DNA from: an uncultured Candidatus Actinomarina sp.
Lineage (GTDB): Bacteria > Actinomycetota > Acidimicrobiia > Actinomarinales > Actinomarinaceae
Direction of reading: 5' to 3'
DNA length: 60,581 bases
Assembly: GCA_902595195.1 (NCBI GenBank)
Contig: CACJPC010000004.1
Span: forward strand, 1 to 60,581
Positions 7,004 through 19,566 of the stretch are shown one piece after another. Under the pieces are notes generated by a model. That model worked only from the letters and a program-made list of their open reading frames with translations. It was not told the DNA's origin and did not search any database. Made by a program: the position numbers and the translations under genes. Every line of letters starts with the position of its first letter. The stretch's first letter is position 1.

Positions 7004-7077
7004 TGGGAGATACAAGATTTGAACTTGTGACCCCTTGCGTGTCGAGCAAGTGCTCTGCCAGACTGAGCTAATCTCCC
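7004..7077 (-). tRNA. tRNA-Val(GAC)
   Basis: GGGAGAT/ATCTCCC acceptor stem, anticodon arm CTTGC-TCGACAC-GCAAG, T-loop TTCAAAT; CCA not encoded. Confidence 0.93.
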
Positions 7078-8649: not shown

Positions 8650-8723
8650 TGGAGGCGACGACCGGAATCGAACCGGTGTACAAGGTTTTGCAGACCTCTG
8701 CGTAGCCACTCCGCCACGTCGCC
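8650..8723 (-). tRNA. tRNA-Cys(GCA)
   Basis: GGCGACG acceptor, GAGGT-CTGCAAA-ACCTT anticodon arm, GGTTCGATTCC, U discriminator, encoded CCA. Confidence 0.95.
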
Positions 8724-8729
8724 GTGAAG

Positions 8730-8803
8730 AGCGGTAGAAGGGATTCGAACCCTCGACCTTCTCGTTGGCAACGAGACGCTCTAGCCAGCTGAGCTACTAC
8801 CGC
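8730..8803 (-). tRNA. tRNA-Gly(GCC)
   Basis: GCGGTAG/CTACCGC acceptor, TCTCG-TTGCCAA-CGAGA anticodon arm, GGTTCGAATCC. Confidence 0.95.
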
Positions 8804-15863: not shown

Positions 15864-17087
15864 CTATTTAATAAAATTAATTAGGTCCCAAATTGCATTA
15901 TTTACTGCTCTATTAATAATATCTTCTCTGCTACCCCTTAATTTATGGTAGAAATTTACTGTTTCCTTATTGTTAGAAATTGCAATAAATATTTCTCCAA
16001 TTTTGTAATTACTTGAAGGAATAGGCCCTGCTTCCCCGAGTATGGCTAAAGAAATCGAAGATTTATACTTTTTAATTGATTTTTCTGAAAGTTCTTTAGA
16101 CAATGTCTCCCAATCATCTGAAATATCATCGGAAAGATATTCTTTCTTAGCTTCATTAGAATATAGAGTATTCGCAGCTAATAATATTGAACTGGATCCA
16201 GGGTAATTAATTATTTCAGAGGATAAGTTACCTCCCGTTATGCTTTCGACTAAAGATAAAGATAAATTCTTTTCTTTCAATAAATTAAATAAAGCTTTAG
16301 AAGCAGGAATATTTTGATAACCAATTATTGAATCTTTAAAGGAATCTTCTAAATGTGTTAAAAATTCTTTTAGATTAACTTTATCAATTGAATTTTTATC
16401 ATATCTGAGTTTAATGATTCCTTTACTTGCTAAGTAAGCTAAATCTAAGCCTTCAGGTTTAAATTTATTAATTTCTTCAGCTAATGATGATTCTGCTTGA
16501 TTAAAAAATAAAACAAACTCATATTCTTTATTAGTAGTGGAAAAATTATCTTTTAATAAAGGTACAACTTCATCAATCACTAAAGGATTAAATTCTCTGG
16601 GAGGACCAGGAAGAATAAAAATATATTTTCCACTATGTTTTATTAGTATCCCTGGAGCTGTTCCTTGAGAGTTGATCAATTTTGTTGATCCCACAGGGAT
16701 TTGAGCTTGTTTTATGTTTGTTTCTGGCATAGTGAAACCTCTTGCTTCCCATCTAGATTTCATCCAAGATAAGTGCTCTTCGTCGACTTCTAAATCTATC
16801 TCTAAAGCACTGCAAATAACTTCTTTTGTAAAATCATCTTCTGTTGGGCCAATTCCCCCACATGAAATAATTACATCATTTTTATCGAATAATTTTAAGA
16901 ATTCGTCTTTTATGATTTCTTTTTTATCAGGTACAGTAACTTCAGAAGATAATATAAAACCATTGTTGTAAAGTGTTTGGCCTAGAGACGATAGATTTGT
17001 GTTAACAGTATCACCTAACAATAATTCTGTACCAACGCTTAATAGTGCTATATTCACAGTATTCACAATAGCAAAGTTATTATTCAA
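15864..17087 (-). CDS. cinA: CinA (MocF-like domain plus NMN deamidase PncC domain)
   Basis: VGTELLLG, GGIGPTEDDFT, GTAPG, LPGPPRE, ESITGG, YSNEAK; start may be GTG near 17057. Confidence 0.9.
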   Translation of the reverse strand: MNNNFAIVNTVNIALLSVGTELLLGDTVNTNLSSLGQTLYNNGFILSSEVTVPDKKEIIKDEFLKLFDKNDVIISCGGIGPTEDDFTKEVICSALEIDLEVDEEHLSWMKSRWEARGFTMPETNIKQAQIPVGSTKLINSQGTAPGILIKHSGKYIFILPGPPREFNPLVIDEVVPLLKDNFSTTNKEYEFVLFFNQAESSLAEEINKFKPEGLDLAYLASKGIIKLRYDKNSIDKVNLKEFLTHLEDSFKDSIIGYQNIPASKALFNLLKEKNLSLSLVESITGGNLSSEIINYPGSSSILLAANTLYSNEAKKEYLSDDISDDWETLSKELSEKSIKKYKSSISLAILGEAGPIPSSNYKIGEIFIAISNNKETVNFYHKLRGSREDIINRAVNNAIWDLINFIK

Positions 17088-17105
17088 TCATATTATGATT
17101 ATTTC

Positions 17106-17561
17106 ATGAAAAGATTTATATTAATTTTCCTCGTTTTTATAGCCTGTTCACAGGGTGCTGAAGTTGAAAGTGCAGAACCCATTAATGTAGTTTCGGATAG
17201 CTCTTTTTCATTTATAAATTCAGATCTTGTTGAAGATTCTGAAGACTTCACAAACAAAAAAACAATAATTGTCTTCTGGGCAGATTACTGAAGTGTTTGT
17301 AGACAGGAGTTGCCTGTCCTAGAAGCTGAATTAGAAAATCTACAAGAAGAATATGATATTATTGCTCTTGCTCACAGTGAGTATGGTCCAACTTTAGAGT
17401 GGGTAGATGAAAACTTAGAAGGTAAATTAAAAATTGGTTTTTCCACTCCTCAATTAAGAGATTATTTTAAAGTAGTTGGACAGCCTATAACTTTAATTCT
17501 AGATACAAATGGTGAAGTAATTTTTAGAGATTTTGGCGAAATAAAGTTTACAAATTTTTAA
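17106..17561 (+). CDS. Thioredoxin-like (TlpA/ResA-type) lipoprotein with selenocysteine, UxxC motif
   Basis: ORFs 17106-17291 and 17310-17561 are in frame. Read-through gives VFWADY-U-SVCRQELPVLE, plus GQP cis-Pro motif and lipobox-like FIAC. Confidence 0.85.
17300..17321 (+). promoter_or_regulatory. Bacterial SECIS-like hairpin
   Basis: GACAGG-AGTTG-CCTGTC stem-loop starting about 10 nt after the in-frame UGA (17289-17291). Confidence 0.7.
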
Positions 17562-17622
17562 CTTAACTTAAGATCCTTAAATCCTAAATATGTAATATGG
17601 GATTATAAGCTAGCGGAGGATA

Positions 17623-18744
17623 ATGATGAAAAAATCATTACTACTTCTACTCTGTCTTGCATTAGTTGCTACTGCTTGTGGTGGCTCTGCTGAAGAGACT
17701 GTAGAAGAACCCGTTGCTACGGAAGAAGTCGAAACTTTAGAGGCTCCAGCAACCACTGCTGCGCCAACTTTAGATAAAATTGTTTTTGGCTTTGTACCTA
17801 GCGCGGAACAAGCCGAATTATTAGACAACATTCAACCAATGATGAAAGTTTTGACTGATGGTTTGGGTATTGAAGTTGAAGGATTTGTAACAAGTGACTA
17901 TTCAGGTCTACTAGTTGCAATGGGATCTGGTCAAGCTGACGTAGGTGCTTTTGCAACCTTGGGTTATGTAACAGCAATGGAAGCATTTCCAAGAAGATTT
18001 GAAGCAATTGCTAAATCAGTAAGGTATGGCTCTGGATCGTATCACGGAACATTCTGGACAACAGACGCAAGTATTTGTGATTCTCCACCAGTTATAGGTG
18101 CTTTTGAAAATATCAATGGTGTACCAACTCTAGTAACTGGTTCAGAAACAACTCCACCTGATGTAAAAGCTCTACAGGTAGGTTGGGGATTTGGTGATTC
18201 TGGGTTAATCCCAGAAGTTCGAGACGGTGTTACAACTAGTCCTGGACTTGCTTGCGAAGCAGATCTATCTGTTATGTTGGGAGAGGAAGTACTTTTTGTT
18301 GAAGAAGGTTCAACATCAGGTTACTTATATCCATCTCTACAACTTAAAAAAGCAGGAATTGATTATACAAGTGATATAACTCAAAGATTTGCTGGTTCAC
18401 ATGATGGTGTTATTGCTGGTCTTTATAATGGTGATGCAAAGTTTGGTGTTACATATGATGACGCAAGAAGAACATTAAGAAAAACAAATGCTGATGTAGG
18501 CGAAAAAGTCATAGCATTTGCAATTACAGAAGAAATACCAAATGATGTGATTGCAGTTAGAACAGATTTGCCTGAAGATATTAAACAGCAAATTTATGAT
18601 ATTTTAGCTGAATATATTGCTACTGAAGAAGGTAGAGCCATAATGGATGAAATTTATGGATGGACTGATTTAGTGCCTGCAGAAAACTCAGAGTTTGATG
18701 TGGTTAGAGAAGCAGCAGAAGAATTTGGTCTTTACGACGACTAA
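17623..18744 (+). CDS. phnD: Phosphate/phosphite/phosphonate ABC transporter substrate-binding lipoprotein
   Basis: Lipobox ATAC, FGFVPS, GSTSGYLYP, AGSHD, IPND. Confidence 0.88.
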   Translation: MMKKSLLLLLCLALVATACGGSAEETVEEPVATEEVETLEAPATTAAPTLDKIVFGFVPSAEQAELLDNIQPMMKVLTDGLGIEVEGFVTSDYSGLLVAMGSGQADVGAFATLGYVTAMEAFPRRFEAIAKSVRYGSGSYHGTFWTTDASICDSPPVIGAFENINGVPTLVTGSETTPPDVKALQVGWGFGDSGLIPEVRDGVTTSPGLACEADLSVMLGEEVLFVEEGSTSGYLYPSLQLKKAGIDYTSDITQRFAGSHDGVIAGLYNGDAKFGVTYDDARRTLRKTNADVGEKVIAFAITEEIPNDVIAVRTDLPEDIKQQIYDILAEYIATEEGRAIMDEIYGWTDLVPAENSEFDVVREAAEEFGLYDD

Positions 18745-18751
18745 TTAATAT

Positions 18752-18788
18752 AAAACTAGGGCAGTTATTACTGCCCTAGTTTTTTTTT
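18752..18788 (+). terminator. Intrinsic terminator or stabilising hairpin between phnD and phnC
   Basis: AAAACTAGGGCAGT-TATT-ACTGCCCTAGTTTT followed by T-run. Confidence 0.85.
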
Positions 18789-18795
18789 GAAAATT

Positions 18796-19566
18796 ATGAT
18801 TGAATTTAAAAACGTAAGTGTTACATATCCGGGTGGAGTAAAAGCATTAAATAATGTTTCTTTGGATATAGATGAGGGTGACTTTGTCATCATTGTAGGT
18901 ATGTCTGGAGCGGGTAAATCAACTTTGTTAAGAACTGTTAATAACTTAGTGAAGCCCACTGAAGGAGATGTAATTGTTGATTCTCGAAATGTTACCAATG
19001 CCTCAAAAAAAGAACTAAAAATTATTAGATCAGATATTGGAATGATTTTTCAAACTTTCAATTTAGTGAATAGATCATCTGTATTAAAAAATGTTTTAAC
19101 CGGAAGATTAAGCCAAGTTTCTTCACTTCGTTCTATATTTGGATTATGGCCGAAAGATGATAAAGAAATTGCATTTGAATCATTAAACAAAGTAGAAATA
19201 TTAGAAAAAGCATACGTTAGAGGATCGAATTTGTCAGGTGGTCAGCAACAAAGAGTAGGAATTGCTAGAGCTCTTGCACAAAAACCCAAAGTGATGTTAG
19301 CAGATGAACCGGTAGCATCATTGGATCCTATAACCTCAAGGGTTGTAATGAAGTACTTAAAAGAAATAAACCAGGAACTAGGCATTACGACAATTGTTAA
19401 TTTACATTTCTTAGACCTCGCAAAAGAGTTTGGTGAAAGATTAATCGGTCTCAAAGATGGAGAACTTGTGTATGACGGTAAAGTTAACGATGTTAGCGAT
19501 AAAGATTTTGAAAATATTTATGGTAGAGCAATAAAATCTTCGGATTTATTAGGAGAAGATGATTAA
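18796..19566 (+). CDS. phnC: Phosphonate ABC transporter ATP-binding protein
   Basis: GMSGAGKST, LSGGQQQRV, ADEPVASLDP, VNLH. Confidence 0.93.
   Translation: MIEFKNVSVTYPGGVKALNNVSLDIDEGDFVIIVGMSGAGKSTLLRTVNNLVKPTEGDVIVDSRNVTNASKKELKIIRSDIGMIFQTFNLVNRSSVLKNVLTGRLSQVSSLRSIFGLWPKDDKEIAFESLNKVEILEKAYVRGSNLSGGQQQRVGIARALAQKPKVMLADEPVASLDPITSRVVMKYLKEINQELGITTIVNLHFLDLAKEFGERLIGLKDGELVYDGKVNDVSDKDFENIYGRAIKSSDLLGEDD

Follow-up and report, generated by a model that had tools for sequence, protein, structure and literature searches.

Background

Selenoprotein families with a UxxC motif have been on record since 2005, when a 'Prx-like' and a 'thiol-disulfide isomerase-like protein' family were among those listed from the Sargasso Sea metagenome (PMC1088965). 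The latter family (cd02966, TlpA-like, UxxC) is retained in Table 1 of a 2026 review (PMC13188914), further UxxC Trx-like and Prx-like families appear in the Global Ocean Sampling (GOS) survey (PMC2398784), and a 'UGC-containing TlpA' is listed separately as a family. The use of selenocysteine (Sec, U) in the genus Candidatus Actinomarina is the subject of a 2026 preprint (bioRxiv 10.64898/2026.04.03.716425), whose text describes selD in a Sec form, puts the predicted selenoproteins at about 5 for each genome, and states that the Rfam models of the selenocysteine insertion sequence (SECIS) gave nothing significant in these organisms. The terms 'thioredoxin', 'TlpA' and 'UxxC' are absent from its main text; its supplementary tables may list the gene that is described here. 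This gene lies on the forward strand, at positions 17106-17561, of a 60,581-nucleotide stretch of DNA (in the following, the window) from an uncultured Candidatus Actinomarina sp. (GenBank assembly GCA_902595195.1, contig CACJPC010000004.1, positions 1 to 60,581). An earlier inspection of the bare sequence (the original prediction) had proposed it as a hidden selenoprotein gene.

We conclude, with a probability of roughly 0.93, that this is a genuine selenoprotein gene, in which the UGA at 17289-17291 is decoded as Sec by way of an RNA hairpin, and that its product is an exported, presumably lipid-anchored thioredoxin similar to ResA, TlpA and Etrx. There is direct support for the reading frame, for the conserved UGA, for covariation in the RNA, for a Sec machinery and for the fold. 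As far as the sources cited above describe it, the kind of protein is already known, both through the UxxC TlpA-like families of 2005 and through the use of Sec in the genus. What is added here is a lineage for the protein, its predicted lipoprotein nature, a covariation-defined SECIS element for which Cys forms serve as natural controls, and the recognition of a database artefact.

The closest described family is the 'thiol-disulfide isomerase-like' one from the Sargasso Sea, which, by its description in PMC1088965, has in common with the Actinomarina protein a marine origin, a TlpA-like thioredoxin domain, a UxxC motif in which Sec replaces the first Cys, and a bacterial SECIS shortly after it. 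In the family descriptions of PMC1088965 and PMC13188914 it is not assigned to the Actinomarinales or Acidimicrobiia, and the lipoprotein nature and the covariation-defined SECIS that we describe here are not given for it. Compared by description only, our protein probably belongs to this family, since the description fits and the Actinomarina lineage is abundant in such samples.

Among proteins of solved structure, the fold resembles that of ResA of B. subtilis, TlpA of Bradyrhizobium, CcmG of E. coli, DsbF of M. tuberculosis and the pneumococcal Etrx1/2 (Foldseek E values of 6e-10 to 1e-7, template modelling scores of ~0.65-0.73). These extracytoplasmic thioredoxins resemble the Sec protein in having a motif of the WCxxC type with a conserved Glu and Pro after it, as well as the cis-Pro loop and an anchor in the membrane or on a lipid. 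However, the Sec protein has Sec in place of the nucleophilic Cys, is only 16-22% identical to them and scores far below the NCBIfam equivalog cut-offs. Unlike the genes of CcmG and ResA, its gene lies outside any ccm or res operon, a place that is occupied by a Cys paralogue. NCBIfam also holds a model of the UGC-containing TlpA family (NF041054, 'ResA-like WAxxUGC motif-containing protein'), which is likewise ResA/TlpA-like with Sec after W-A-x-x. It differs in its motif (U-G-C versus U-x-x-C) and its size (a model of 354 positions versus 151 residues), and membership was rejected, as the Sec protein scores 18.5 bits against a cut-off of 300 and has no U-G-C motif.

A reading frame across an in-frame TGA

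The frame of the gene begins with ATG at 17106, ends with TAA at 17559-17561 after 151 codons, and contains a single in-frame TGA at 17289-17291; reading the window sequence confirmed both this TGA and the open frame up to 17561 that had been proposed. With the TGA read through, the product has 151 residues, starts with MKRFILIFLVFIAC and carries the motif TIIVFWADY-U-SVC-RQELPV around Sec62. The second, resolving residue of the U-S-V-C motif, Cys65, is encoded by TGT at 17298-17300. Further downstream, codon 17484-17486 specifies Pro127, whose position would match the cis-Pro loop of thioredoxin folds. Residues W58, U62, C65, E68, P70, Q126 and P127 do not vary among the 25 aligned sequences, nor does G144, again downstream of the TGA. 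That the TGA occupies the place of the first Cys of the ResA/TlpA motif is borne out on two sides: it aligns with the first Cys of WCxxC in the nearest solved chains found by sequence search, which are thioredoxin-like thiol:disulfide proteins, and with the same Cys in the Cys paralogues of the class and in TGC forms of the same orthologous group.

Family models recognize the protein with marginal scores. Pfam assigns AhpC-TSA, at 27.7 bits over a cut-off of 26; Redoxin, Thioredoxin_8 and Thioredoxin fall slightly short of theirs. The best NCBIfam matches all remain below threshold (ResA 34.7 against 170, StoA 29.7 against 210, TlpA 29.3 against 230, DsbE 24 against 123), and with such scores the protein is not an equivalog of any characterized ResA, TlpA or StoA. 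The structure prediction is clearer. An AlphaFold2 model built with 25 aligned homologues has a mean predicted local distance difference test (pLDDT) score of 83; most of residues 31-140 score above 90, and residues 1-25 have low values. Strand 52-58 leads into Sec, and helix 63-74 begins immediately past it. In a Foldseek search of the Protein Data Bank the top match is ResA of B. subtilis. Next come Etrx1/2, the thioredoxins among the surface lipoproteins of the pneumococcus, then a ResA-like protein of the anthrax group, DsbF of M. tuberculosis, TlpA, CcmG and StoA; the probability is 1.00 for ResA, Etrx1, DsbF and TlpA.

This fold bears directly on the possibility that translation simply terminates at the TGA. 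Under the standard bacterial code (table 11) the gene splits into an open reading frame (ORF) of 61 codons and another of 83, so that a 61-residue lipopeptide and a separate 83-residue protein starting from TTG at 17310 could be made. Both ORFs exist, and fragments of this kind are called by public pipelines. On its own, though, neither half makes up a domain: the confidently modelled fold (pLDDT >90, residues 31-140) spans the TGA, which lies between strand E52-58 and helix H63-74, the frame is retained across the TGA in all orthologues, and the hairpin described below covaries with the TGA. We consider such termination very unlikely.

At its N-terminus the protein has a lipoprotein-type signal peptide, MKRFILIFLVFIA-C (17106-17147, with the codon of the lipobox Cys14 at 17145-17147), which we assign from sequence features rather than from a predictor. 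It comprises a basic n-region, a hydrophobic core and Cys14, the last of which is invariant in 25 of 25 aligned sequences, and genes for Lgt and LspA were both found in the same genome. Because of the invariant lipobox Cys and these two genes, the Sec protein is best read as an extracytoplasmic thioredoxin that would be lipid-anchored, which agrees with the export as a lipoprotein originally predicted.

Conservation of the TGA codon

An orthologue was found in 22 of 24 genomes of the same genus, at 45-68% identity. Each contains exactly one in-frame TGA, in all 22 cases at the same codon, after FWADY; the two genomes that yielded no orthologue are 78% and 69% complete. A scan with one genome per species gave 55 loci named Ca. 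Actinomarina, Actinomarinales or OCS155, a set that overlaps in part with the 24 genomes, and all 55 have the TGA at this codon together with a hairpin in which six of six positions pair. Two public contigs that carry the Actinomarina-type gene with its neighbours (L079 and L095) are titled 'Proteobacteria bacterium' and 'Methanobacteriota archaeon', and are probably mis-binned or mislabelled contigs of metagenome-assembled genomes.

Two high-GC Acidimicrobiia from the first search read FWAEW-TGA-S[VI]C. The protein of one of them was used as the query for a class-level search in a draw of 251 Acidimicrobiia genomes, with a cut of E <= 1.7e-30 that was chosen by eye. Under this cut there were 51 places in 49 genomes, 48 of them with one TGA and three with none. 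The high-GC loci that were fetched have the TGA at the same codon in 20 of 20 cases and read FWAEW-TGA-xxC. Over all orthologues that carry the TGA, identities range from 42 to 96% and several families of the class are represented; the motif of the relatives is U-[GSTPH]-x-C, here U-S-V-C. The alignment of homologues that had been suggested as a check on the Cys/TGA correspondence has in this way found the TGA in place at genus level, in the named loci and at class level alike. Because it recurs at the same codon across the class-level homologues, the family is, as predicted from these alignments, a class-wide selenoprotein of the Acidimicrobiia that Actinomarina has kept through genome reduction.

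The same data make a nonsense mutation, a pseudogene or a sequencing error in an ordinary Cys-type TlpA gene hardly credible. In its favour, table 11 does break the gene into ORFs of 61 and 83 amino acids. But the identical TGA is present in all orthologues examined, down to 42% identity and across families of the class, the protein past it is conserved, including the invariant Q126-P127 and G144, and contigs from RNA libraries of four studies agree at the TGA. The sequence is one intact, strongly constrained gene for a small cell-surface redox selenoprotein.

A covarying hairpin downstream of the TGA

Bacterial SECIS elements usually require a stem within a certain distance window from the UGA and a GU in the apical loop. 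The original prediction had pointed to a GACAGG/CCTGTC hairpin with a G near the start of its loop, and a hairpin of this description is present at 17302-17318 on the forward strand, within codons R66-V71. The 5' arm GACAGG (17302-17307) and the 3' arm CCTGTC (17313-17318) enclose the loop AGUUG (17308-17312), in which G is the second base, and the stem begins 10 nucleotides past the UGA. RNAalifold, run on 16 sequences, predicts this 6-bp helix as the sole consensus helix. When the 45 nucleotides from the TGA onwards are folded by themselves, the energy is -13.2 kcal/mol (z = -3.1), and 2 of 200 shuffled sequences are equally stable.

In an alignment of 25 sequences (24 distinct), all 144 hairpin cells pair, and in a broader set of 45 sequences with GC contents from ~33% to 70%, 98.9% of 270 cells do so. 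Three of the six pairs have changed on both sides: pair 1 between G-C and A-U, pair 3 between C-G and G-C, and pair 4 between A-U and G-C via G-U. In 500 shuffles neither the pairing nor the covariation score of the real alignment was reached, and with the 3' arm shifted by 1-3 columns only 44-63% of cells pair. The loop follows the pattern AGUUR. The compensatory swap from C-G to G-C entails two joint amino-acid changes, Q to E and V to L, which places the constraint on the RNA. One homologue with a divergent peptide, CEREMPR, apparently retains the hairpin shifted by one base, as judged by eye.

Homologues in which the codon is TGC serve as natural controls. All three TGC forms in the same orthologous group have lost the helix (only 3/6, 3/6 and 2/6 positions pair), and in a Bryobacterales TGC homologue, which has the identical peptide CRRELPV, 4 of 6 positions pair. 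The helix thus tracks the UGA and not the peptide, since four of the four TGC homologues examined are without it, one of them despite an identical peptide. Taken with its covariation, the hairpin is a predicted SECIS element, defined by covariation, for the Actinomarina lineage.

The insertion of Cys at a recoded UGA is known in other cases. It is conceivable that here, too, the UGA is recoded through SECIS and SelB but that Cys is inserted, either by mischarging or under selenium scarcity. The genus throughout retains selA and a Sec-type selD, however, and three lineages that did switch to Cys made the change through a TGC codon, after which the hairpin was lost. We give Cys insertion very little credence beside the insertion of Sec.

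TGA in other genes and in database entries

If TGA stood for tryptophan or some other standard amino acid, whether because the genetic code has changed or by near-cognate read-through, the motif would be WxxC, and at first sight public databases agree with this: among the matches listed, 119 of 120 homologues have W at the Sec position, none has C, and the last one is deleted across the site. The lengths of the contigs tell a different story. Full-length W forms are found on contigs of at most 5.3 kb, whereas contigs of up to 325 kb carry fragments of 65-88 amino acids, and this holds within five clusters, including those of P0020, P0024 and P0106. The W forms would then reflect gene callers that, on short contigs of low GC, select the table in which TGA encodes Trp (table 4), and that divide the gene on other contigs. 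The expectation that annotation pipelines would break up the gene has come true in these fragments on the long contigs.

Within the genome itself, TGA ends 146 of 660 ORFs of at least 200 codons. The next in-frame stop follows after a median of 6 codons, and no more than 2 of the 146 stay open for at least 40 codons past the TGA; in the window TGA ends 6 of 49 such ORFs. As TGA is the ordinary stop of so many long ORFs, a reassignment throughout the genome is excluded. Reading the codon as Trp is also at odds with its position at the catalytic Cys of a CxxC motif, with the tRNA-Sec and the Sec-encoding selD of the same genome, and with the loss of the hairpin wherever the codon is TGC. We judge it extremely unlikely. 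Site-specific recoding by a TGA that is a stop elsewhere, as first proposed, is supported by the genome-wide ORF ends together with the conserved TGA and the covarying hairpin.

Family matches revealed two further genes with one in-frame TGA each in this genome: an Rdx/SelW-like gene (CxxU) on contig C1 (186960-187175) and an AhpD-like gene (TIGR01926) on C2 (78765-79262). Single-sequence folds past their TGAs give the loops AGUUA and GGUC, respectively, compared with AGUUG in the Sec lipoprotein gene; GU is present in all three loops. The genome was also scanned for TGA-interrupted ORFs by hairpin energy. Its best match (C6:13227-13556) is a false positive, a SecG-like ORF of 78 codons that ends at a normal TGA and is followed by a tRNA-like structure, and what it picked out on C9, C23 and C29 was rejected, being frames of low complexity that contain several TGAs. 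The tRNA-like stretch after the SecG-like ORF folds strongly and weakly matches the tRNA-Sec model; such an arrangement mimics a UGA with SECIS and might deceive programs that predict selenoproteins. In the scan the Rdx-like gene came out low and the AhpD-like gene was not among the best 16, so the scan is insensitive.

Selenocysteine machinery in the genome and the genus

The assembly from which the window derives comprises 932 kb in 29 contigs, with ~33% GC, and is 79% complete. It contains a tRNA-Sec gene on C5 (3964-4054), which scores 75.4 bits against a gathering score of 47 and is called SeC with anticodon UCA (tca) by ARAGORN. A selD gene on C1 (216480-217406, 371 bits) itself has a single TGA, reading MRLTEYSHGAG-U-ACKL. 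A lack of sel genes, together with TGT or TGC in all close relatives, would have spoken for a mere mutation; here the genome does have sel genes, and its relatives carry the TGA.

When 41 genomes of the genus were surveyed, 39 had selD with one TGA, 36 had tRNA-Sec, and 35 had selA above the cut-off. An ORF of 557-571 amino acids that resembles SelB lies ~50 nucleotides from selA in 33 of the 41 genomes and aligns along nearly the whole SelB model. According to the text of the preprint (bioRxiv 10.64898/2026.04.03.716425), selC, selA, selD and a divergent selB are present in 84 of 84 complete Actinomarina genomes, and the Sec form of selD in only about half of the genomes, compared with the 39 of 41 observed here. 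Of the Sec machinery that the original prediction implied, the tRNA-Sec and the Sec-containing selD are found in the genome itself and selA and selB-like genes across the genus, but selA and selB are not in this assembly.

Genomic neighbourhood

Upstream of the Sec gene and divergent from it lies a CinA-type gene (15864-17087, reverse strand; Pfam MoCF_biosynth and CinA). Downstream on the same strand follow genes that match, by Pfam, a PhnD-like phosphonate-binding lipoprotein (17623-18744) and the ATPase of an ATP-binding cassette transporter, phnC (18787-19566). This order is common in the Actinomarinales: cinA adjoins the Sec gene in 54 of 55 loci, and phnD and phnC are neighbours in 49 and 48. 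In a scan of 16700-17800 for promoters and terminators, sites were no more frequent than in shuffled sequences, and on the forward strand no terminator-like site was found to separate the Sec gene from phnD. In metatranscriptome libraries of four studies, contigs cover 17210-17900 and run from inside the Sec gene into phnD with the TGA unchanged. They begin at varied points between 17122 and 17210, and none covers 17036-17103.

Compared between the window (17623-19566) and loci L062-L116, the identities of PhnD and PhnC are out of step with those of the flanking genes. For L116 the values are 42% for the Sec protein, 54% for CinA and 94% for PhnD, and for L074 they are 57%, 64% and 97% in the same order, with 99% for PhnC. 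This suggests that the phn cassette may have been exchanged between Actinomarina species, or may be under very strong constraint. Elsewhere in the window, Rfam finds three tRNA genes on the reverse strand (7004-7077, 8653-8723 and 8730-8803).

Evidence against a selenoprotein gene

Several observations weigh against the conclusion that the gene encodes a selenoprotein. With respect to the RNA element, no SECIS family of Rfam matches in the window at gathering thresholds, the three tRNAs being the only hits. With respect to the protein, the Pfam and NCBIfam scores given above (AhpC-TSA just over its cut-off, ResA far below) are marginal, and the insertion of selenium is deduced from sequence. 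The RNA-library contigs prove neither transcription nor translation nor a single transcript. Moreover, no conserved context or partner emerged when 89 ORFs around the gene in 9 high-GC relatives were compared with Pfam; the genes beside it vary from one family to another (TrpD and Lgt with a second thioredoxin; MIP and a hydrolase; an acyl-CoA dehydrogenase). CcdA (PF02683), a possible source of electrons, was not found by profile search in the genome.

A further objection concerns the machinery. A profile search of the 79%-complete assembly yielded no selA, and no selB either, the matches to the selB model being two other GTPase-type ORFs of 669 and 598 amino acids. The matches of EF-Tu size (~400 amino acids) that this model gives in relatives are likewise missing, which shows that the assembly is gappy. 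In four relatives (L046-L049), the genes that adjoin selB match positions 1-1436 of contig C1; because C1 starts with these flanking genes, the selAB pair probably falls just past the end of the contig. In the preprint, selA is placed at the boundary of a hypervariable region, and the break of C1 agrees with this location. Even so, SelB stays below the NCBIfam cut-off in 41 of 41 genomes of the genus (the SelB-like ORF scores 164-223 bits against 242). Two near relatives, G009 (one contig, ~1.0 Mb) and G010, keep the Sec lipoprotein gene, the Sec-encoding selD and tRNA-Sec and have no match to selA or the SelB-like ORF; here, too, an assembly gap at the hypervariable region is probably the cause.

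Proposed function and significance

Two Cys-type paralogues of the Sec protein are encoded in the genome, one of which ends a ccmC-ccmE-ccmF-ccmH cluster on contig C3. This System I cytochrome-c maturation cluster (C3:14553-18861) has matches to Cytochrom_C_asm, CcmE, a CcmF-type protein and CcmH, and closes with a 178-aa ORF of no assignment and the Cys-type thioredoxin-like ORF; two genes beyond it lies a gene of the TauE/SafE family. A CcmG-like role of the Sec protein was rejected, given that the Cys paralogue holds the place in the ccm operon and the Sec gene sits between cinA and phnD. As that role is already occupied, the Sec protein must act outside cytochrome-c maturation.

For the insertion of selenium, the lipidation, the catalytic cycle and the electron donor, we infer the following course. 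The UGA at 17289-17291 would be decoded as selenocysteine by tRNA-Sec, which a SelB-type elongation factor would deliver by binding the 6-bp hairpin with its AGUUR loop inside the coding stretch for R-x-E-L-P-V. The lipoprotein signal peptide would export the protein, and Cys14 would anchor it through a lipid to the outer face of the cytoplasmic membrane. By analogy with the ResA/TlpA family, Sec62 at the N-terminus of helix alpha-1 would act as the attacking nucleophile and Cys65 would resolve the intermediate through a selenenylsulfide. Re-reduction would probably proceed via the CcdA-type membrane electron conduit of the genus, CcdA being present in 21 of 25 genomes of the genus, far from the Sec gene. 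Our best guess is that the protein serves as a general extracytoplasmic reductase of disulfides, sulfenates or peroxides which protects or repairs proteins of the envelope.

A more specific role can be imagined, though we think it unlikely. In this scheme an ancient surface selenoenzyme of the whole class Acidimicrobiia would, in the Actinomarinales, have become part of an operon for phosphonate or phosphite uptake. Co-transcribed with phnDCEE, it would maintain the proper redox state of the PhnD binding lipoprotein with its two Cys, or of its ligand chemistry, at a sunlit, oxidizing surface. If this were true, selenium would be a hidden requirement for phosphorus scavenging in a highly abundant ocean bacterium.

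The known working of selenoproteins is left unchanged by this gene. It supplies a covariation-defined SECIS for a lineage in which, by the text of the preprint, the Rfam models gave none. Since the databases carry either a Trp in place of Sec or a split gene, homology-based annotation and metaproteomic searches will miss or misread the protein. Ca. Actinomarina ranks among the most abundant free-living bacteria of the sea and among the smallest, and with this gene its small selenoproteome gains a well-supported member that is exported. For a genome of ~1 Mb to retain both the gene and the entire Sec pathway, selenium must bring a real advantage at the surface of the cell.

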